NCBI GenBank assembly: GCA_018696395.1
Contig: JABHQR010000012.1
Span: forward strand, 11,841-75,840
Origin: an archaeon
Lineage (GTDB): Archaea > Nanobdellota > Nanobdellia > Woesearchaeales > GW2011-AR9
Length of the DNA: 64,000 nucleotides
Direction: 5' to 3'
The notes beneath the pieces were generated by a model, which did no database searches, was not told the origin of the DNA, and saw only the letters and a program-made list of their open reading frames with translations. Made by a program: the position numbers and the translations under genes. Position 1 is the stretch's first letter; every line of letters begins with the position of its first letter. Below are positions 7,365-63,297 of the stretch, piece after piece.

Positions 7365-7448
7365 TGCGAAGGAAGGGGTTCGAACCCTCGCACTCACTAA
7401 GAGACTAGCCCCTCAAGCTAGCGCATTTGACCACTCTGCCACCTTCGC
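7365..7448 (-). tRNA. tRNA-Leu (anticodon GAG), class II, no intron
   Basis: Reverse-complement folds by hand: acceptor GCGAAGG/CCTTCGC with discriminator A, D stem GCA/TGC, anticodon stem CTAGC/GCTAG with loop TTGAGGG, 15-nt variable arm, T arm GAGGG-TTCGAAC-CCCTT. CCA is not encoded. Confidence 0.7.
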
Positions 7449-22074: not shown

Positions 22075-22165
22075 GCCTCAGTGGCTTAGCGGTTAGAGCA
22101 TGCGAGAATTCAATTCCATGAAGCTGTTAACCGCAGGGTCGTAGGTTCAATTCCTACCTGAGGCG
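22075..22165 (+). tRNA. tRNA-Asn (anticodon GTT) with an 18-nt intron inside the anticodon stem (~position 30/31; intron 22105..22122)
   Basis: Hand fold: acceptor GCCTCAG/CTGAGGC plus G73, D arm GCTT-AGCGGTTA-GAGC, T arm GTAGG-TTCAATT-CCTAC. The only splice that restores a 5-bp anticodon stem (TGCGG/CCGCA) and a canonical loop gives CTGTTAA. Confidence 0.6.
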
Positions 22166-42804: not shown

Positions 42805-43824
42805 ATGGACTTAAGAGAAATAGCTGTTAATGATTTATTAGGGAGGATTATTGCTTTCTTATCAGTTATGAATGGTGGTAAGACTAGGTCGTTAGTTGGG
42901 GAATTAGAACGAGTAAGGCATTCAAGTCTTAATTTTTCTGCTTATAATCCTAAAAAAAATAATCGTGATGGTTCTTATCTCTCAGTTAATGGTGAACCAA
43001 AAATTCTTGCCAAACCAGTGGAGTCAATTCTTGAAATTAAAGAAGATATAATTAAAATTAGAGAAATTCTATCATCCAATCAAGTTAAATATTCTGGAAA
43101 TAATGGTATTATTGAAATTGATGGAATTAAATATCGAAAAAATTGGCCTTTGGCAGCTGTTGGAATTGATGAAATTAATTTGTTTTGTTTAACTGAAAAG
43201 GATACTAAAGATGTTGCAGATTTTTTTAAATGGTCAAAACAAAATGGTTTAGTTTCATATTTAGCTGGTTTAGAAGAAGATTTCAGGCATCGGAATTTTG
43301 GAAATTTTCATTTAATAAAAAATATGGTAAATCATAGTTTATATAAAAAACCAGTTTGTAAAGCTATTAATAGTGGGACTCAATGTAGTAAACCTGCAAT
43401 GCACACTCAAAGATTATGGTCATTAGAATTTGCTAAAGATCTTGGCCTAGAATCAATGTTAGGTGATTTAGAATTGTTTCCTTATGTGGACAAAAATGGG
43501 GATATTAATTCAAAAAATTATTTGGCTGCCCCTTACTTTGATCAAACAGTAAGAATTGAAGCTGAAAAAACTAAACAGATAGTATATCTTCCTGTTTGTG
43601 AAGACTGTGCCCGATTACCTTACAAAAAAGAAGTGTTTGATGTATTTGAAGCAATTAAAGAAAATCAAGATCCAGCAAAAGTTCTTAACAATGATCTTCT
43701 CACTAAATTTATTTTAGAATATCTCTCAAACGATATAGATGGTTTTGTTAAACAAGAGAGGGGACTTTATGTCCCAAAGAGATATGTTCATAATTCTTTA
43801 GGTGGATTTTCAACTATTGAATAA
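42805..43824 (+). CDS. TK1-family thymidine kinase homolog with long insertion/extension
   Basis: P-loop-like LSVMNGGKTRSL, the TK1 block AAVGIDEINLF, and two zinc-ribbon pairs (CKAINSGTQC, CEDCARLPY). At 339 aa it is ~150 aa longer than a typical TK1. Confidence 0.55.
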   Translation: MDLREIAVNDLLGRIIAFLSVMNGGKTRSLVGELERVRHSSLNFSAYNPKKNNRDGSYLSVNGEPKILAKPVESILEIKEDIIKIREILSSNQVKYSGNNGIIEIDGIKYRKNWPLAAVGIDEINLFCLTEKDTKDVADFFKWSKQNGLVSYLAGLEEDFRHRNFGNFHLIKNMVNHSLYKKPVCKAINSGTQCSKPAMHTQRLWSLEFAKDLGLESMLGDLELFPYVDKNGDINSKNYLAAPYFDQTVRIEAEKTKQIVYLPVCEDCARLPYKKEVFDVFEAIKENQDPAKVLNNDLLTKFILEYLSNDIDGFVKQERGLYVPKRYVHNSLGGFSTIE

Positions 43825-43911: not shown

Positions 43912-43912
<1 letters not shown>

Positions 43913-44337
43913 TACTTCTTTTTAGAAATTTTCTTTTTAACTGACTTTTTCTTAACTACTTTTTTCTTGGCAGGAGTTTTCTTTGTAGTTTGTTTCTTAG
44001 TTGGCTTGGAAGATGTACTTTTTTTCTTTACACTACTTTTCTTTACTTCCTTCTTTTCAACTTCCTTTTTTACTATGTCTTTTCTAGCAGAAATGACTCT
44101 TGATTTTTCTTGATTTTTCTCTTCTTTATTCTTTTTTTCTCTTTTAAGGATTAAGTAGATTATTGGTAAGATACCTGCGGTGTTTAATATCAACAATAAT
44201 AAGAACCAAACAAATTCTTTTCTGTTAGCTGATTTCCATAAAGCTAAACCTTTCCAAAATATGCTCCAAAATATTAAAATCACTAATACCAGATTAAAAG
44301 CAAACTGGTTTTGATAAATTGTGTATAAATATGACAT
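43912..44337 (-). CDS. small membrane protein (2 TM) with long Lys-rich C-terminal tail
   Basis: Two hydrophobic helices, then a ~70-residue tail that is about half Lys (KKSSVKKKSTSSKPTKKQTTKKTPAKKK...). Confidence 0.5.
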
Positions 44338-44500: not shown

Positions 44501-46603
44501 TTGATGGGATGGAAAGAGTTATGGACATATTTAATAACAGATCCAAATAAAGTAAAATCTAAATCTTCTTGCAATAAGAAATCTAAACTATTATCTCTCA
44601 ACTTAACTAAAAAAACTTCTGAAAAAAAATTCAACTTATCGGATTCAACTTCAAAAAGGAAATTAGGAACTGGCGTTCTTTTATTTATATTAATTAATTC
44701 TATATTAGGTAGTTCGTTATTTTACTTGCCAAGTTTAGGTGTGAAAAGTTTTGGAGCGGCAAGTGTTATTTCTTGGTTACTTATTTTCATGGTTGCAGGT
44801 TTTATTATGTTATACATTAGTGAACTGTTAGTTCTTTTTCCATCATCAGGAGGAACTTATTTTTATTGTAAAAAAGCGTATGGGCGATTTATTTCTTTTA
44901 TGGCTGGTTGGATGATCTGGTTGGCAGGAAATATTGGGATGGCATTAAACATTGTAGCTGCAGCAGAATATTTTATTCCTGAAACTGGCAGTGGTGCATT
45001 TGCGTTACGTATCGCTTTTAGTTTAGTTTGGATTATAGCATTAAATTATATGGCTTTTAGGGGTATAGATGCAGGCGTTACTATGTTAGTAGCGTTTGGG
45101 ATATTTTCTATTGTAGTTGTCTCACTTTTGATAATTCCTTCTTTCATTAGTGTTCCTGCTTTACTTGAGGGAAATTTAGTTACTAATTTTGACATTAATA
45201 ATATAACTCCTTTCTTTAGACATTCTGGGGGTTTTGGATTATTGTCCCATTTACTTTTATCTTTACTAATGGTTTCAGAAGCATTTTTTGGGTTTGAAAC
45301 ATTAAGTTATTTATCAAATGAAGCTGAAGATAAAAAGAAATTGCCAAAAATTTTATTTTTATCAATGTTAATTTGTGGTTTAATAATGGGTTTGTATGTG
45401 CTAACTTCTGTGGCAACAGTAAATTATGGTGATTATGTTACTAATGCAAGGCCTTGGGCTGTGCAAGCATTAAATATTTTGGGAGAAACAGGTAAAAGTA
45501 TTATTGTGTTTGGAATGTATCTTACTATCATTGGTGCTGCTGCTGCTTGGCCGATTACTAGTTCTCGGTTAGTACAAGCAATGGCCAAAGATAAATTGTT
45601 TCTGAAACATTTTGCTGCAAAACATCCTAAACACAAATCCCCCTATAAAGCAGTATATTTTCAAACTTTTGCCATAATATTGTTCGCATGGTTAATATTT
45701 AGGGGTTATATGGTGAATTGGAGTGACCCTTACCGGACAATGCACTTAATTTATGTTGTAATAAGTTTAATCTCTTTATCGTTAATACTTTTTACTGTAC
45801 CAATATTACGTAAAAAGTTTGCTAATCTAAAACGAGATTTCAAAGCACCTTTACCTTTACTAGGTCCAATCTTAATAGTATCATTTTTTACATTTTTAAT
45901 CTTTAATTGGGTTTTTATAGAAGGTGCAGTTGCAAAATCAATTATCAATTTAGCATTATCTTTTGTGGTGTTAGGAATCCCTTTATACTTTTTAATAGAA
46001 ATGTTTTATGATCCAAAAGCTATTGTAAGAACTAATGAGTTTCTTTCTTACTTTGTATTGTTAACTGAGAAAATACATTTTCCTTTAAGTATTAGAAATA
46101 AGATTTTGAAAGATTTAGGTGATGTTAAGGGGAAAACTGTGTTAGATTATGGGTGTAGTATTGGTTCATTAACTAAACGTTTAGCAAGAAAGGTTGGTTC
46201 TAACGGGAGGGTTTATGCTACTGACATCTCTTTGCATAATGTTAAGATTACTGATCAAAGAACTAATGAAATCTCTCAAGTTACAGTTCATCATCACCCT
46301 AGTTTGGATAATTTTAGTTTAAAATTATTTCCTAAAGCAGACCTAGTTTTGTCTATTGGAATGATGTCTTATTTACAGAAGCCTCGAAAGATTTTAACTT
46401 CTTTATCAAAACAAGTTAAGAAAAATTCAGAGATTATTTTTGTTGATTATGATAAATTCTTTTATTTTATTCCTAATGTGACTTGGATTGAAGATGATAA
46501 ACAATTGGTTAAATTGTTTAAATTTGCTGGGTTCAAAGTTAAAATTACTAGAAAACAAGGTTTTTTATGGACTTATGTTATTGTTAAAGGGAAAAAGATT
46601 TAA
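44501..46603 (+). CDS. APC-superfamily permease fused to a C-terminal class-I SAM-dependent methyltransferase domain
   Basis: ~12 TM N-terminal region with APC-like GxG and proline patterns. C-terminal 200 aa has MTase motif I VLDYGCSIGSL, post-I acidic YATDIS and motif II DLVLSIGMM. 700 aa. Confidence 0.7.
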   Translation: MMGWKELWTYLITDPNKVKSKSSCNKKSKLLSLNLTKKTSEKKFNLSDSTSKRKLGTGVLLFILINSILGSSLFYLPSLGVKSFGAASVISWLLIFMVAGFIMLYISELLVLFPSSGGTYFYCKKAYGRFISFMAGWMIWLAGNIGMALNIVAAAEYFIPETGSGAFALRIAFSLVWIIALNYMAFRGIDAGVTMLVAFGIFSIVVVSLLIIPSFISVPALLEGNLVTNFDINNITPFFRHSGGFGLLSHLLLSLLMVSEAFFGFETLSYLSNEAEDKKKLPKILFLSMLICGLIMGLYVLTSVATVNYGDYVTNARPWAVQALNILGETGKSIIVFGMYLTIIGAAAAWPITSSRLVQAMAKDKLFLKHFAAKHPKHKSPYKAVYFQTFAIILFAWLIFRGYMVNWSDPYRTMHLIYVVISLISLSLILFTVPILRKKFANLKRDFKAPLPLLGPILIVSFFTFLIFNWVFIEGAVAKSIINLALSFVVLGIPLYFLIEMFYDPKAIVRTNEFLSYFVLLTEKIHFPLSIRNKILKDLGDVKGKTVLDYGCSIGSLTKRLARKVGSNGRVYATDISLHNVKITDQRTNEISQVTVHHHPSLDNFSLKLFPKADLVLSIGMMSYLQKPRKILTSLSKQVKKNSEIIFVDYDKFFYFIPNVTWIEDDKQLVKLFKFAGFKVKITRKQGFLWTYVIVKGKKI

Positions 46604-46609
46604 TCTTGA

Positions 46610-47386
46610 TTATAATCCCTTTACATAAGCTTCTAGTTCAGCTAATCTATTCATGTTTGGATTATTTATGAACTCTTCAATATCATCAAAAAAATCATCA
46701 CTTAAACCATATGTTGCCCTTTTGCTTTTAAGTAAAGGTAATGCTTTTTTCATCTTATTTATTTGGTGTATATGGCTAAAATTTTTTAAATAATTTTTTA
46801 ATCTTTCCTTAGCAATTTCAAATTTAAGTGCACTAAAATTATTTGGCATTAATTGTGAAAATTCATTATATACCTTTTTCCAAATAATTGCTTTTTGGTA
46901 TGTTTTGTGGCATGTTAAAGTACAAGGTACCCATTCTATCTCTTTACCAAATTTAAGGTATTCTTTAAGCTTTAAATTATATTTTTGATCTTTATCTATA
47001 ACAATTCTTTTTAAGATGTGATAAGCGCTTAGGCTGAAAGTATTTAACGTAGTCCCTTCTTCACAATATTTTGGATAACCTAAGTAATGTGATGCAAATT
47101 TATTTTTGTGGATATAATATCTAAAACCATTCCAAGATTTGTATGATTTTTTGTCAAAAGTAACATAACCTTGATGTTTAAAAGAAACATAAAATCCTAA
47201 TTCCTTTAACAAGGGAACAATTTCTCTTTTGAAAACTTTTTTCTCATGAGGGTAATAATATTGTACTAAAAAACCTGGCTTTACCCTTTCATAAACTAAC
47301 ATTAATTGAAAAAAATTATCAGCATCACCATATTTGTTAAGAATCATTACTAATTTATTGATGATTTTTATTTTATCTTCTCTCAC
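46610..47386 (-). CDS. hypothetical protein
   Basis: 258-aa ORF with no recognisable motif. Lies between the first permease-MTase gene and the K+ channel. Confidence 0.4.
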   Translation of the reverse strand: MREDKIKIINKLVMILNKYGDADNFFQLMLVYERVKPGFLVQYYYPHEKKVFKREIVPLLKELGFYVSFKHQGYVTFDKKSYKSWNGFRYYIHKNKFASHYLGYPKYCEEGTTLNTFSLSAYHILKRIVIDKDQKYNLKLKEYLKFGKEIEWVPCTLTCHKTYQKAIIWKKVYNEFSQLMPNNFSALKFEIAKERLKNYLKNFSHIHQINKMKKALPLLKSKRATYGLSDDFFDDIEEFINNPNMNRLAELEAYVKGL

Positions 47387-47455
47387 AATAATAAAGATAA
47401 TAAAGTCAATTTAAATAACTTACCCTTAAAATTAAAATGTACTTAAGAAATCACT

Positions 47456-48436
47456 TTATTTTACATGGCTCTTTCTTAACTTAGTTCCACAATTTTTACA
47501 ATATAATGCATCTAAATCATGTTCCTCTAAATGACAGTTTGGACATTTAATTTTTGTTTTTGTAACTTCCATCATTAAGACTTTTATTAACTTACCTAAC
47601 TGCCAAGGTATTAATGCTATCCCTGACAATATGGTTGCTACTGTTAAGAACTTTCCTAGTCCTGAAATTGGCGTAATATCTCCATAACCTACTGTAGTTA
47701 CAGTTACAATAACAAAATAAATCGCTTCCCATATATTACTAAATTGTCCTGGGTTGACACTATTTTCTACAGTCCAGATCAAACCAGATGATATCAAAAT
47801 AATTGTAAATATAGTTAATATTATCCTAATAATGATTAGTTCACTTTCATTTAATTTACCAAATAATGTGTCTTTAGATTTGAAAATTCTTTGGAATCTA
47901 AGTACCCTTAACATCCTAAATAATCTTAAAATTCTAAATACTCTGAAAAATGTCAAATCTGCAAAATGTACAATTATAGGCAAAATTGATGCTAAATCAA
48001 TCAAACTGTATGGGTTAAAGAAATGTTTCATTTTTTTCTTTGCTACCCACATTCTGCCAATATATTCCATTAAAAATATGCTAACTAAAAAAACTTCTGC
48101 ACCTCCAATAATGAAATTAATAGTATCACTGAATTGATAAGTGCTAAGTATGAACAATGCTACTGCTAAAAAATTTAAGAAAAATAATGTCCCTTCAATT
48201 CTTCTTCCATGTAATGATTCATAATTATCAAGGTGTAAATGTAAAAATGATCTTATATCATTAATAATGCTATTTTCAATCTTAGCTTCTTCTTTGATGA
48301 TTTTTGAATCAATAGAATCTTCATTATTTGCTTTACCATAACTGTTTTTAATCTTAGTTGTTAGTTTAATTTTAGATTTAAGTTTAATCGGTTTCTTTTT
48401 GTTTACAGTTTTAATGCTTTTTTTTTTAGTTGCCAA
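47456..48436 (-). CDS. voltage-gated K+ channel (KvAP-like, 6TM) with C-terminal C4 zinc ribbon
   Basis: S4 RVFRILRLFRMLRVLRFQRIFK (Arg every third residue), selectivity filter TVTTVGYGD, C-terminal CPNC...CKNC, Lys-rich N-terminus. Confidence 0.8.
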   Translation of the reverse strand: MATKKKSIKTVNKKKPIKLKSKIKLTTKIKNSYGKANNEDSIDSKIIKEEAKIENSIINDIRSFLHLHLDNYESLHGRRIEGTLFFLNFLAVALFILSTYQFSDTINFIIGGAEVFLVSIFLMEYIGRMWVAKKKMKHFFNPYSLIDLASILPIIVHFADLTFFRVFRILRLFRMLRVLRFQRIFKSKDTLFGKLNESELIIIRIILTIFTIILISSGLIWTVENSVNPGQFSNIWEAIYFVIVTVTTVGYGDITPISGLGKFLTVATILSGIALIPWQLGKLIKVLMMEVTKTKIKCPNCHLEEHDLDALYCKNCGTKLRKSHVK

Positions 48437-48476
48437 GGTTATTTATTTCATTAATAATATGATTTCAGTTTATTAA

Positions 48477-49100
48477 TTATCTCTTTTTATTTTTATTATG
48501 TTTTTTTATTTTGATTTTAGTAAAAAATCTTGATTTTGTTAAAACTCTTGTTGATCTAGCGCCTAACTTCAAAAATTCTGCTAATCTTCCTGTTCTTGAA
48601 GCAATTGCAACGCCTTTACGTATCTCTAGGCTTTCATGAAGGATCGCTTGACCTACTCCTAAATCTTTTGAAACTGTTAATGCTAACTTTAATCCTTCCA
48701 TGAATTTTAATGCTAGCATAAATGGAAATACTGCTAAAATGTCTAACCAATAATTTTTGAAAAAATATTTTTTTGAATCACATTTTTTTGCTATAAAAAT
48801 TAAATCAATTACAAATATTGAAATTACTAAATAATCCAGAAATAAAATTATATTGTGTACAATGTGATTTTCTATATGAAAAAATATTTCGATAATAATA
48901 ATTAATGTAAGTGCAATCAAAGCGTAGGGAATCAGTTTGGCATTACATTTTTCAATTCTTTCCCAGAATTCATTATATTTAGTTTTAGTTTTTTTATAAT
49001 GGTTGTAATGTTTAGATCTTGTTTTAGATTTTTTAAGTTTAGACTTACTTTTTATCAATTTAACTTTAACTCTGCCTACACTCTTTTTACTTAACACCAT
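48477..49100 (-). CDS. stand-alone voltage-sensor-domain (S1-S4) protein, no pore domain
   Basis: Four TM segments. S2-S3 region (IDLIFIAKK..KKYFFKNYWLDILAVFPF) parallels the neighbouring channel (EYIGRMWVAKKKMKHFFNPYSLIDLASILP). S4-like RTGRLAEFLKLGARSTRVLTKSRFF. The protein ends about 25 residues after S4. Confidence 0.5.
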   Translation of the reverse strand: MVLSKKSVGRVKVKLIKSKSKLKKSKTRSKHYNHYKKTKTKYNEFWERIEKCNAKLIPYALIALTLIIIIEIFFHIENHIVHNIILFLDYLVISIFVIDLIFIAKKCDSKKYFFKNYWLDILAVFPFMLALKFMEGLKLALTVSKDLGVGQAILHESLEIRKGVAIASRTGRLAEFLKLGARSTRVLTKSRFFTKIKIKKHNKNKKR

Positions 49101-49236
49101 CTTTTAACTAATTTAGAATTATTTTTTGATATAAAAATGCTTTGTTTTTATATCTTTTAACATATATGTAAATTAATACGTTCCCATTACTTTTATATAC
49201 CTAAAAAAATTACTTAAATCCTATTAAAGGAGTTAT

Positions 49237-51126
49237 GTGATGGCTGAACTTAAGAAAGTACTTGGTTTTAAGACGATTTTACTTATTACAATTAACTCTA
49301 TTATGGGTACTGGGATATTTTTTCTTCCAGCGGTTGGTGCAGGTAAGTCTGGCCCAGCATCTTTAATTTCTTGGGCAATTTTATCAGTGGTTTCAATTTA
49401 TATTGCAATGTGTTTTGGAGAATTATCTTCAATGTTCCCAAAATCTGGTGGGATTTATGAATTCTGTAAACAAGCTTATGGTAGGTTTTTTTCATTCTTG
49501 ATTGGTTGGATGACAATCATTGCAGGAAATGTTACTATTGCTATGTTGGTGGTAGGTGCAATACAATATTTAATGCCAGTTGGTTCAATTTGGTTAAAGA
49601 TAGGTGCATCGTTAATATTTATATTCGTATTCAATTACATTGCATTTAAAGGGATGCAAACTTCTGCTGTTATGTTAATTGCTTTTTCAATTATAACTTT
49701 ATTTACAGTAATATCTTTAATTATACCTGGTTTGATTAAATTTAATGTGAGTAATTTTACTCCTTTTTTTGTTTTCCCGGTATCTTCCATCGCATTAACA
49801 ATTTTTTTAGTGGCAGAAACTTTTTTTGGTTGGGAAACTGCAACTTTCTTGGCTGAAGAGACTAAAGATGGCCAGAAAGTTATGCCTAAAGCTTTAATTT
49901 ATGGTACCATTATTATCGCAGTAATTTGTTTACTTTCAGTAATCTCTTCTATGAGTGCTATTAATTGGCAAATATTTGGTTCTTCTAGTGCACCTTTAGC
50001 GGATTTAGCGGTGGAACATTTTGGACCACAATCTTCCGGTGTTTACACCATTTTAGTTTATCTTGCAATAATTGGTTCTGTTGCGGGTTGGATTGTTTCA
50101 GCTCCAAGATTATTATTGGCAATGGCTGAAGATAAATTATTTCCTGCCCAATTTGCAAAGATTCATCCTAAGAACGGTACGCCGTATTTAGCAATAATAT
50201 TTCAAACAGTTTTGTCTACAATTTTAGTAATTGTTGGTGCTGGTTCTTATACCACTTTATTGGAACTTCTTTTACCAATAGTTCTTATCATGTATTCTTT
50301 TGTATTAATTAGTGTAGTTGTACTAAGATATAAAAAACCAAATCTTAAAAGATATTACACTGCGCCTTTTGGTAAAGTGGGCCCTATACTTGTTACATTA
50401 TTCATTTTTTTCTTAATAGGGATGTGGTTACATGAATCTCATGGTGCATTTGATCTGTTGAGTATTGCAGTATCATTATTGATTTTGGGGATTCCAGTAT
50501 ATTTCTTGATAGAAATGTATTATGATTCAGAAGCAATTAGGAAAGTTAATGAAAAATTACCTTATCTATTATTATTTTCAGAAAATTTCTTATTTCCTTT
50601 AGATGTTAGAAGAAAAATATTTCTTATGGTTGGAAATTTGAAAGGTAAAAAAGTATTGGAATTTGGTTGTGGTGTTGGAACATTAACAAGAAGGTTAGCA
50701 AACAAAGTTTTACCTGGTGGGAAAATTTATGCATTTGATTTTGCTAAACATAATGTTAACCTTGTTTCTAAAAACATGAAAAAAAATAATCATAATCATG
50801 TTTCTGTTTTTCATCATGAATATTTAGACCATTTTAAAACTAAGAATAAATTTCCTAAATGTGACATTTTAATATCTACTGGTACATTTAGTTATGTTCA
50901 AAACCCTGAAAAAGTAGTTAAACATTTGAGTAATAACTTGAGAAAAGGTGCTCGAATTGTTATAATGGACTATGACAATTTCTTTCATTTAATGCCTAAT
51001 GTAGAATGGATCTCTGATCATAAAAGATTAAATCAAATGTTTACCCAGGCCGGATTTAAAATTGAAATAATTAGAAAAAGAAGTTTATTATGGACACACA
51101 TATTTATTGTTGGTGAAAAAAAATAA
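49237..51126 (+). CDS. APC-superfamily permease fused to a C-terminal class-I SAM-dependent methyltransferase domain (paralog of 44501..46603)
   Basis: Same architecture. MTase motif I VLEFGCGVGTL, post-I YAFDFA. 629 aa. SD AAGGAG upstream. Confidence 0.7.
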   Translation: MMAELKKVLGFKTILLITINSIMGTGIFFLPAVGAGKSGPASLISWAILSVVSIYIAMCFGELSSMFPKSGGIYEFCKQAYGRFFSFLIGWMTIIAGNVTIAMLVVGAIQYLMPVGSIWLKIGASLIFIFVFNYIAFKGMQTSAVMLIAFSIITLFTVISLIIPGLIKFNVSNFTPFFVFPVSSIALTIFLVAETFFGWETATFLAEETKDGQKVMPKALIYGTIIIAVICLLSVISSMSAINWQIFGSSSAPLADLAVEHFGPQSSGVYTILVYLAIIGSVAGWIVSAPRLLLAMAEDKLFPAQFAKIHPKNGTPYLAIIFQTVLSTILVIVGAGSYTTLLELLLPIVLIMYSFVLISVVVLRYKKPNLKRYYTAPFGKVGPILVTLFIFFLIGMWLHESHGAFDLLSIAVSLLILGIPVYFLIEMYYDSEAIRKVNEKLPYLLLFSENFLFPLDVRRKIFLMVGNLKGKKVLEFGCGVGTLTRRLANKVLPGGKIYAFDFAKHNVNLVSKNMKKNNHNHVSVFHHEYLDHFKTKNKFPKCDILISTGTFSYVQNPEKVVKHLSNNLRKGARIVIMDYDNFFHLMPNVEWISDHKRLNQMFTQAGFKIEIIRKRSLLWTHIFIVGEKK

Positions 51127-51187: not shown

Positions 51188-52249
51188 TTACTTTTTTTTA
51201 TTAACTTTCTTTTTCAATGTTTTTTTCTTAACTGATTTTTTCACAATTTTATTTTTAGTTAATCTTTTATTAACCAGTTTTTTCTTAATTACTTTCTTTT
51301 TTGCAGTTACTTTTTTCTTGACTACCTTTTCTTTTTTAGGTTTTTTCTTAGCAACTTGTTTAGTAATTTCTTTTTTCTCTTTCTTAATAGATTTTTTAAC
51401 ATTAGCTTCTAATTCTTTTAAATCTTTGAGTATATCTGAAGCAATGAAACAATATCCTTTCTTATTTTTTAACTGTAAATCACCAAAATATCCATTAATG
51501 TATGCTGCTGCTGCTGCACTTTTGAAAAGATCTTTTGTTTTAGCAAGGAATCCTACTGCTAAACCAGCTAGCACATCTCCAGTACCTGCTTTTGTCATCC
51601 CTTGATTTCCTGTTCTATTAAAGTAAATCTTATTTTTTGAAATGATGATGTCAGTTGCTCCTTTAACTACAATGACATTATCATTTTGTAAAAAATACCT
51701 TAAATTTCCTTGTAAAATGTCTGCTTTTTCTTTAGCATTAGAAATTTTTAGTTTAGGTAATAAAAATTCTTTTCCACTATTAATTAACATTATTTCAAGT
51801 TCTTTTTCATGTGGTGTTATAATTGAATTTTTAAAATCTCTAAATGATGCAGATTTTAATGCATCTGCGTCAATAACTTTTAAACCTTGAAATTTTTTGA
51901 TAAATGTTTGACAAAATTTATCTGAAGCTCTAGTCATACCATTTCCAACTAATACTGCATCAAACCGGTCTGCAAATTTAGCTAGTTCCTTAGCATTTTT
52001 TATATTTAAAGAATTTCCAATAACTTTATGGGTTATCAAATCTAATGATATTTGATTAATTGTCCAAGCAATTTTTTCAGGAGCTGCAACTGTAACTGAA
52101 TCACAACCTGATCTTAAAGCCGCTAAACCAGATAATGCTGGTGCGGTGACATATTCCTCTGATCCGCCTACAATGAGAGCGTAACCATTTTCACCTTTAT
52201 GGGAAGTTTTTCTCCTTTCCATTAATTTTTTAACTTGATTAAGGTTCAT
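51188..52249 (-). CDS. ADP/ATP-dependent NAD(P)H-hydrate dehydratase (YjeF C-terminal/carbohydrate-kinase-like domain) with Lys-rich C-terminal tail
   Basis: GENGYALIVGGS...AVLVGNGM...KAGTGDVLAGLAVGFLA, all YjeF_C hallmarks. The C-terminal ~70 aa are K-rich. Confidence 0.75.
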   Translation of the reverse strand: MNLNQVKKLMERRKTSHKGENGYALIVGGSEEYVTAPALSGLAALRSGCDSVTVAAPEKIAWTINQISLDLITHKVIGNSLNIKNAKELAKFADRFDAVLVGNGMTRASDKFCQTFIKKFQGLKVIDADALKSASFRDFKNSIITPHEKELEIMLINSGKEFLLPKLKISNAKEKADILQGNLRYFLQNDNVIVVKGATDIIISKNKIYFNRTGNQGMTKAGTGDVLAGLAVGFLAKTKDLFKSAAAAAYINGYFGDLQLKNKKGYCFIASDILKDLKELEANVKKSIKKEKKEITKQVAKKKPKKEKVVKKKVTAKKKVIKKKLVNKRLTKNKIVKKSVKKKTLKKKVNKKK

Positions 52250-63128: not shown

Positions 63129-63239
63129 TGCTCAGATCGCATAATTTGGTATTGCGCTGGACTGCTATATCTTTCATAAGCAATCTTTGCAGCCATCCAG
63201 TTTCCTTTTGGATATCTGGGTTCAAATCCCAGTCTGAGC
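63129..63239 (+). tRNA. tRNA-Ser (anticodon GCT), class II, with a 27-nt canonical 37/38 intron (~63166..63192)
   Basis: Hand fold: acceptor GCTCAGA/TCTGAGC plus G, anticodon stem CTGGA/TCCAG with loop CTGCTA|A, 15-nt variable arm, T arm CTGGG-TTCAAAT-CCCAG. Confidence 0.6.
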
Positions 63240-63297
63240 GTATTACCTTTTTTTCTTTACCCAAAACTTAATATACATCGATTCTCTTCTTTTAGTT

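Follow-up and report, generated by a model that had tools for sequence, protein, structure and literature searches.

Amino acid permeases with a C-terminal methyltransferase-fold domain in Woesearchaeota, and related carriers with a predicted voltage sensor

Two permease–methyltransferase fusion genes

The 64,000-nucleotide stretch analysed here (the window; G+C about 29%), part of contig JABHQR010000012.1 from an archaeon of the Woesearchaeales, contains two plus-strand open reading frames (ORFs) of 700 and 629 amino acids (aa) that flank three minus-strand ORFs of 258, 326 and 207 aa. Each flanking gene encodes an APC-type permease joined to a class I methyltransferase (MTase) domain, and the two products, P1 and P2, are our main subject; the genes between them encode an orphan protein, a voltage-gated K+ (Kv) channel and a pore-less homolog of voltage-sensing domains (VSDs). 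All five ORFs, with their strands and coordinates, had been described in an earlier note made from the letters alone and were reproduced from the ORF list. Public gene calls for the identical locus start both fusion genes one codon later, at ATG 44504 and ATG 49240.

That P1 and P2 are fusion paralogs, as the note had proposed, is borne out by Pfam scores, end-to-end alignment and full-length homologs. AA_permease_2 (PF13520) is matched at 1e-35 by P1 and at 9e-50 by P2 (124 and 170 bits against a cutoff of 27), Methyltransf_31 at 2e-12 and 6.5e-15, respectively, and the Methyltransf_31, 23, 12, 25 and 11 models exceed their gathering scores in P1 and P2 alike. The two proteins align over their entire length, linker and MTase domain included, at 40% identity (E = 4e-168). 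A homolog search with P2 returned 1102 proteins at E < 1e-10; both domains are present in all of the best 120, nearly all at 99–100% query coverage and 620–660 aa long, with 55–77% identity. A GTDB scan, with one genome per species, confirmed 152 relatives, and the best 80 of these, which were the ones looked at, span essentially the whole 629-residue query, bar three cut by contig ends. When the linker and MTase region served as the query, an exhaustive HMMER search gave 963 matches among 1.84 billion representatives. Because strong matches lie mostly at the C-terminus of proteins of ~550–860 aa, this MTase clade is essentially specific to the permease fusion; standalone MTases are found only at ~1e-8. 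The identical locus occurs on 23 contigs, among them a JGI metagenome contig and an NCBI metagenome-assembled genome (MAG). A frameshift or misassembly that fused a permease gene to an adjoining MTase gene, which the note had raised as a possible undoing of its proposal, is refuted by the architecture common to both window paralogs, the same sequence on those 23 contigs from separate sources, its full length in more than 100 clusters and in the best 80 of the 152 species loci, and the generic nature of the nearest standalone MTases, and we give it virtually no credence.

Homologs that carry a lineage name belong to Woesearchaeota/Nanoarchaeota. Many GTDB-scan records are automatically titled 'uncultured Methanosarcinales', and these have 50–69% identity and share synteny with Woesearchaeota MAGs. 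The window proteins were also compared by tblastn with 84 related loci, 18 of them closest and 66 more distant. At the distant loci the fusion is a single-copy gene among housekeeping genes (uS7, uS12, a Dph2-like diphthamide synthase, aIF-1A and SppA), which indicates a core, vertically inherited gene. Hundreds of copies are deposited in databases, where their only label is 'amino acid permease'. The note had called the architecture undescribed, and our literature searches likewise found no paper on a permease–MTase fusion, nor on a voltage sensor joined to an amino acid permease. Four long relatives (P0370, P0380, P0410 and P0417; 827–858 aa) have ~230 additional residues after the MTase domain, without an informative Pfam match and with DUF3108 in one; the extension may be a further accessory module.

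The permease half is of a familiar kind. The hydropathy profile of P2 shows twelve peaks, as is canonical for APC carriers, and from the family both termini are expected to be cytoplasmic; with twelve transmembrane (TM) segments the MTase domain would therefore lie in the cytoplasm, where S-adenosylmethionine (SAM) is available. The closest solved structures are BasC (6f2g, 7e-34), followed by xCT, AdiC, LAT2, GkApcT and LAT1. With these BasC/LAT-type and APA-type carriers P1 and P2 share the 12-TM LeuT fold, the GTG of TM1 and the F-x-G-W-E of TM6, the substrate-site motifs being kept as GTGIFF in TM1 and FFGWETATFLAEE in TM6; unlike P1 and P2, none of the solved relatives matched has an MTase-fold domain. 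No NCBIfam equivalog was reached for the permease, the best model being TIGR00909 at 201 bits against a cutoff of 557, and because these cutoffs are so far off the substrate can be assigned no further than 'amino acid or amine'. The last permease helix continues directly into a helical, conserved linker of 45 residues, which is followed by the MTase domain. Pairwise identity is 68% in the permease half and 50% in the MTase half. As far as we searched, what is new is an APC carrier of known kind with accessory domains of this sort.

Table 1. Features of the locus and its flanks, in window coordinates (aa, residue numbers in the protein)
Feature	Position	Strand	Remarks
DUF5652 membrane protein	43912..44337	-	syntenic anchor on the left of the permease cluster, at 14 close-clade loci
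P1, permease–MTase fusion, paralog 'type C'	44504..46603	+	ORF opens with TTG at 44501 (700 aa); 699 aa from ATG
P1 Lys/Ser-rich N-terminal extension			aa 1-50
P1 APC permease			aa ~52-500
P1 linker and class I MTase	46001-46600	+	aa 501-700
P1 motif I, VLDYGCSIG	46139-46165	+	
Orphan 258-aa protein	46610..47386	-	
Six-TM voltage-gated K+ channel	47456..48436	-	326 aa
207-aa pore-less VSD-like protein	48477..49100	-	head-to-head with P2
Divergent intergenic region	49101..49236		136 bp, AT-rich; between the VSD-like gene and P2
P2, permease–MTase fusion, paralog 'type A'	49240..51126	+	ORF opens with GTG at 49237 (629 aa); 628 aa from ATG
P2 12-TM APC permease		+	aa 1-426
P2 conserved linker	50515-50646	+	aa 427-470
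P2 MTase core	50647-51123	+	aa 471-629
P2 motif I, VLEFGCGVG	50653-50679	+	
P2 post-I D501	50737-50739	+	
P2 invariant P587-N588	50995-51000	+	
NAD(P)HX dehydratase (Carb_kinase)	51188..52249	-	syntenic anchor on the right of the permease cluster, at 12 close-clade loci

Fold and motifs of the methyltransferase domain

The C-terminal domain of P2, modelled with AF2 from a 30-sequence alignment (pLDDT 91.3, pTM 0.88), consists of four short helices followed by a seven-strand Rossmann fold. Foldseek returned 1283 PDB matches at E <= 1e-3, the best 50 of which are all class I MTases or MTase-fold proteins. The best Foldseek match reached 4e-14 with a TM-score of ~0.7, and a profile search of PDB sequences gave 1.6e-11 for phosphoethanolamine N-MTases; 3dh0, Rv2258c, UbiG, TehB and ArsM are also among the matches, and the alignments are confined to the SAM-binding core. 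Fold, motif I and post-I acid are shared with the class I small-molecule MTases (Methyltransf_11/25/31; 3dh0, plant and nematode phosphoethanolamine N-MTases, UbiG, TehB, ArsM), from which the fusion domain differs in having acceptor-side residues of its own (DYD, PN, W591, W619) and in being found almost only fused to permeases. No acceptor-specific MTase family was matched beyond the generic Rossmann core in NCBIfam, PDB profiles or Foldseek, and attempts to read acceptor specificity from sequence or fold failed, yielding generic small-molecule MTases only. The domain searches that the note had suggested thus settled the APC and class I MTase assignments, but narrowed the closest MTase family no further than this generic group.

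Motif I and the acidic post-I residue are present in both window copies, as the note had reported, and the C-terminal domains neither fail MTase profiles nor lack SAM-binding residues, the other outcome that it had regarded as fatal. Among 116 type A sequences, the acidic residue of motif I (E475) is D or E in 100%, G477 and G481 are invariant, and the middle position, G479, is S, G or N. Post-I D501 is D or E in 98 of the 116 (84%) and N, S or G in 17. E449, P454, D578-Y579-D580, P587-N588, W591, F602, W619 and G626 are ~83% to 100% conserved; the acidic and aromatic set among them (DYD, W591, W619 and E449) occupies the end of strand 5, the loop after it and the strand 6–7 turn. These comparisons show a genuine and conserved fusion that plausibly binds SAM and that, within the literature we searched, is undescribed.

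Voltage-sensor homologs in the window and in related genomes

At seven close loci a third permease paralog is directly preceded, on its 5′ side and in the same orientation, by a segment similar to the 207-aa protein of the window. At L005:9925-12258 (+) the translation is a single ORF of 777 aa that comprises a canonical S1–S4 region, a basic linker of ~20 residues, an APC permease and an MTase-like domain, with an S4 that reads RALRGVRIIARIVKFARFARYGRLLRLLRF; the other such loci are L009, L011, L014, L016, L017 and L019. These triple fusions, which we call type B, form at least 120 clusters at 60–100% identity, about 110 of the 120 listed being 745–800 aa long at 97–100% query coverage. A search of the window for a VSD-fused paralog found none. 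Across 101 type B sequences the sensor hallmarks are nearly invariant (E28 in S1; D45 and F52-x-x-D55 in S2; D76 and P82 in S3), and S4 carries up to thirteen basic residues, mostly at three-residue spacing. Against all PDB sequences, a profile of this region matches voltage-gated channels only, KvAP best (7.5e-6 over S1–S4), followed by the isolated KvAP sensor, HCN1/4, Kv4, Kv1.2-2.1 and hERG. Pfam Ion_trans does not detect the domain at E <= 0.01, which is why type B proteins are annotated simply as 'amino acid permease'. With a homolog of the 207-aa protein built covalently into the third paralog, a link between voltage sensors and this carrier family exists.

The C-terminal domain has diverged in type B. 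SAM-type motifs (LDYDCGVGGFTR, IYAVDKA) are kept in 35 of the 101 sequences and lost in 66 (VYNSPMGAF, IANQS). The 66 motif-less domains are still full length, at 45% pairwise identity against 81% for their permeases, so that the ratio of MTase to permease identity is 0.56, compared with 0.70–0.73 where the motifs are intact. P587/N588, F576, F602, G626, S547 and D543 are conserved across all 217 C-terminal domains. That the domain is kept at full length despite the loss of its motifs suggests that the fold has a SAM-independent role, most simply in docking on or gating the carrier. Among the 35 motif-intact sequences there is no strongly conserved acceptor-side pocket. A gene for a PLP-dependent enzyme (PALP) lies directly upstream of the triple-fusion gene, on the same strand, at L091:6598-7893 and L092:3415-4710, a possible link to amino acid metabolism.

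The sperm Na+/H+ exchanger SLC9C1 has been described as the sole transporter known to be regulated by a voltage-sensing domain (PMC10620092, PMC6052114). Like SLC9C1, the type B proteins combine, in one covalent chain, a secondary carrier and an S4-type sensor whose S4 is long. They differ in being archaeal and of APC/LeuT rather than NHE fold, and their sensor is N-terminal, joined by the ~20-residue linker to TM1, whereas that of SLC9C1 is not N-terminal but C-terminal with a cyclic nucleotide-binding domain. In the window the sensor homolog is a separate, divergent protein rather than part of the same polypeptide.

This 207-aa protein scores 23 bits with Pfam Ion_trans, against a cutoff of 25, over S1–S3 only. 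It has no pore. Across 89 family sequences no variation is seen in F95-x-x-D98 (S2), D119 (S3) or P125, and almost none in R181, R184 and K188 of the inner S4; a conserved GQAILHESLE replaces the outer half of S4. Ion_trans alone is matched at E < 0.01 by 60 of the 89 members. The family and the type B sensor align by hhalign at 99.5% probability (E = 6e-23, 135 columns); the family profile found no match among PDB sequences, and fold searches with the 207-aa model gave no significant match. The earlier note had called the protein a pore-less voltage sensor: the missing pore and the retained charge-transfer centre agree with this, whereas the sub-threshold Ion_trans score and the replaced outer S4 do not, and on its sequence we regard it as a divergent pore-less VSD homolog and a putative sensor. 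It shares the S1–S3 hallmarks and the lack of a pore with the sensors of Hv1 and Ci-VSP, but differs from Ci-VSP in having no enzyme domain and from Hv1 in having no demonstrated proton path. Relative to KvAP and the VSD-only proteins, the family is without the outer S4 gating charges and has its own GQAILHESLE insert.

Relatives of the protein form at least 120 clusters of standalone proteins, mostly 160–210 aa long and almost all unannotated. In the close clade a short intergenic region separates each of the six standalone sensor genes, that of the window included, from a fusion gene in head-to-head orientation (the others at L005, L009, L014, L018 and L019); the 136-bp region of the window has TATA-like elements facing both ways, as judged by eye only. 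On four long contigs elsewhere, none of the standalone homologs has a permease within 5 kb, and three of the four lie beside a CCA-adding enzyme gene. In these three cases, at L087, L088 and L090, the genes for the standalone homologs P0165, P0196 and P0134 directly adjoin a CCA-adding tRNA nucleotidyltransferase gene and are convergent with it. One MAG holds a tandem pair of standalone VSD-family genes (HYT55_01265, HYT55_01270).

The 326-aa gene encodes a canonical six-TM Kv channel of the archaeal KvAP/MVP type. This identity, which the note had given, is supported by Ion_trans (66 bits) and Ion_trans_2 (60 bits), a TVGYGD filter and an S4, FRVFRILRLFRMLRVLRFQR, with arginines at every third position; the best NCBIfam match is an MVP-like model, below its cutoff. 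The C-terminus (47474-47545, minus strand) reads CPNC-x14-CKNC, a zinc-ribbon-like arrangement that is kept in the L007 homolog (RCKRC...CKNC). A CxxC...CxxC zinc ribbon is, to our knowledge, an unusual appendage for a Kv channel.

Candidate roles and gene neighbourhood

Between methylation of the transported substrate and sensing of SAM by the MTase-fold domain, the evidence leans slightly towards sensing and regulation, with substrate methylation a close rival. This lean comes from the retention of the domain in type B proteins that have lost its motifs and from the lack of a strongly conserved acceptor-side pocket in the 35 motif-intact ones, together with the failure to match an acceptor-specific family and the housekeeping character of the conserved neighbours. 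Our tentative preference is for a regulated amino acid carrier whose MTase-fold domain is mainly a SAM-responsive cytoplasmic module. The domain would be docked on the cytoplasmic face of the carrier and would act as a control responsive to SAM (or S-adenosylhomocysteine), tuning amino acid uptake to the methionine/SAM status of the cell. The family would gather regulatory modules, the third paralog having gained an N-terminal S1–S4 sensor wired to TM1; SAM binding would have become dispensable in most type B copies after this gain, and the separate 207-aa homolog of the window, head-to-head with P2, may act in trans. SAMTOR, which acts upstream of mTORC1, senses SAM through an MTase fold, and some carriers have C-terminal ligand-binding domains (USP, TrkA-C, CBS, STAS). 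These systems would share with P1 and P2 the principle of a cytoplasmic domain that reports metabolite status; SAMTOR has no sequence relationship to the P1/P2 domain, and the window copies, by contrast, may be true enzymes.

Several considerations weigh against a regulatory role. In the paralog types found in the window, the acceptor-side residues D578-Y579-D580, W591, W619, E449 and H521 are more invariant than the post-I Asp, and the acidic and aromatic set would suit an amine substrate and is plausibly a true active site; it could be a real amine-binding site or an interface with the carrier. Loss of motifs in one paralog family is no proof of what the intact domains do in others, and SAM binding, catalysis and transport by the fusion are predictions from sequence. 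The head-to-head loci all fall in one narrow clade and are thus not independent, and the suggested action in trans rests on adjacency; the S4 of the 207-aa protein is atypical, and its fold searches were not significant.

Somewhat less probable, in our judgement, is that the fusion is catalytic: an active N-methyltransferase would methylate the carried compound on its cytoplasmic arrival, a form of metabolic trapping or 'group translocation by methylation', or would make the counter-substrate of an exchanger. The intact SAM motifs of both window copies and most type A sequences fit such a role, as does the location of DYD, W591, W619 and E449, specific to types A and C, where class I MTases hold their acceptor; so do the best PDB sequence matches, which are small-molecule amine MTases, and the rigid, conserved tether to TM12. 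Set against these are the failure to match any acceptor-specific family, the post-I Asp lost in 17 of the 116 type A sequences, and the voltage-sensor paralogs, two thirds of which have dropped the SAM motifs and retain the domain. The neighbourhood, whose conserved members are housekeeping genes, holds no hint of a methylation pathway or methyl acceptor and no pathway for a methylated product, and a SAM spent for every imported molecule would be costly in an organism with a reduced genome.

It is conceivable, although we consider it quite unlikely, that all of these parts belong to one prokaryotic platform for regulated amino acid transport, in which the sensor-fused relatives would be voltage-gated amino acid carriers, the 207-aa protein a detachable voltage-sensing subunit docked on P2 or P1, and the MTase domain either a source of SAM control or an enzyme that methylates an imported amine. 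Still less likely is an acceptor other than the substrate. The MTase would then act on a membrane lipid head group, on the carrier itself or on a partner protein, and the permease would be mainly a membrane anchor. The short conserved linker would keep the domain at the membrane surface, the fold matches include lipid and quinone MTases (UbiG, cyclopropane synthase-like proteins), and automatic names assigned by JGI include 'phospholipid N-methyltransferase'; such names are generic profile labels only. The permease, however, is the better conserved half (68% against 50%) and keeps canonical substrate-site motifs, which argues that it is no mere anchor.

The earlier note had further suggested that the two paralogs and the three genes between them form a membrane-potential-linked transport module. 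In such an operon-like unit the Kv channel would set the voltage, the sensor would read it and the permeases would respond. VSD-containing genes do recur in the close clade in the slot between DUF5652 and the NAD(P)HX dehydratase gene, CarbK (Kv channels at four loci, standalone sensors at five and fused sensors at seven), and fused VSD–permease paralogs exist. In the closest relative (77% identity), however, the two permease paralogs follow one another directly, flanked by the DUF5652 and NAD(P)HX dehydratase genes and with nothing inserted; the Kv channel gene is present at 4 and the 207-aa gene at 8 of the 84 loci, all among the 18 closest, a single narrow clade; and no Kv or VSD gene lies within 8 kb of the fusion at the 66 distant loci. 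The 258-aa gene has no homolog at any of the 84 loci and is unique to this genome, the five genes lie on opposite strands, and standalone sensor homologs elsewhere adjoin the CCA-adding enzyme gene rather than a permease. A conserved five-gene module is thereby largely refuted, and a working module of any kind at this locus seems to us very improbable. The phyletic survey thus found the fusion widespread but without general co-occurrence with Kv or VSD genes, and the voltage link survives in altered form: it does not run through the five window genes, but through the sensor-fused paralogs of related genomes.

The Kv channel and orphan genes are best explained as passengers specific to this lineage, occupying a variable slot flanked by the genes for DUF5652 and NAD(P)HX dehydratase. 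The note had left the 258-aa protein without a name, and it is indeed without a family in Pfam (DUF483 faintly, E = 0.007), NCBIfam or PHROGs. Mobile insertion of the three minus-strand genes was considered and rejected: no repeats bounding them were found, and PHROGs gave no match for the 258-aa protein and, for the 207-aa protein, a weak one to a family of unknown function (E = 1.2e-4).

In the close clade the permease cluster has DUF5652, RimK, RimB-like and CarbK genes as neighbours, and in the window Rad50, a thermosome subunit and the NAD(P)HX dehydratase are among the genes near the locus. A gene pair for a RimB-like aspartic protease and a RimK-type ATP-grasp ligase lies just upstream of the permease cluster at L004:6175-7607, L005:6487-7934 and ~10 further close loci. 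At L021-L086 the fusion gene usually adjoins the Dph2-like gene and the uS12/uS7 genes. Dph2 is a SAM-consuming enzyme; the adjacency may be plain synteny. An Rfam scan found no riboswitch in the window, its sole matches being three tRNA genes at 7365-7448 (-), 22075-22165 (+) and 63130-63240 (+), with spans of 84, 91 and 111 nt, the longer two of which probably carry archaeal introns. A 339-aa protein at 42805-43824 (+) has a weak partial match to thymidine kinase, with no stretch passing alone, and a counterpart of 396 aa at L003; it may be a divergent TK-like protein. Long Lys-rich low-complexity tails occur on the DUF5652 protein, the N-terminus of P1, both ends of the 207-aa protein and the C-terminus of the NAD(P)HX dehydratase (43912-44337, 44501-44650, 48477-49100 and 51188-51400), and look like a genome-wide habit of this AT-rich organism on unrelated proteins.

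The genomes of Woesearchaeota and their DPANN relatives are reduced, and these archaea are believed to rely on the import of amino acids. The fusion appears to be single-copy at a conserved core-genome position in most loci examined and may be among their main nutrient gates. Should the domain sense SAM, nutrient sensing based on SAM would have a prokaryotic counterpart that is part of the carrier itself; a catalytic domain would instead make the fusion a new type of modify-on-import transport. The triple fusions challenge the published view of SLC9C1 as the only transporter controlled by a voltage-sensing domain. If they prove to be voltage-gated, SLC9C1 would be joined by a second kind of transporter under voltage-sensor control, and archaea would have their first. 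The triple fusions also provide a small and simple system in which to ask how a LeuT-fold carrier can be driven by an S4 sensor. The importance of the family rests mainly on its core status in DPANN archaea and on these fusions of sensor and carrier.

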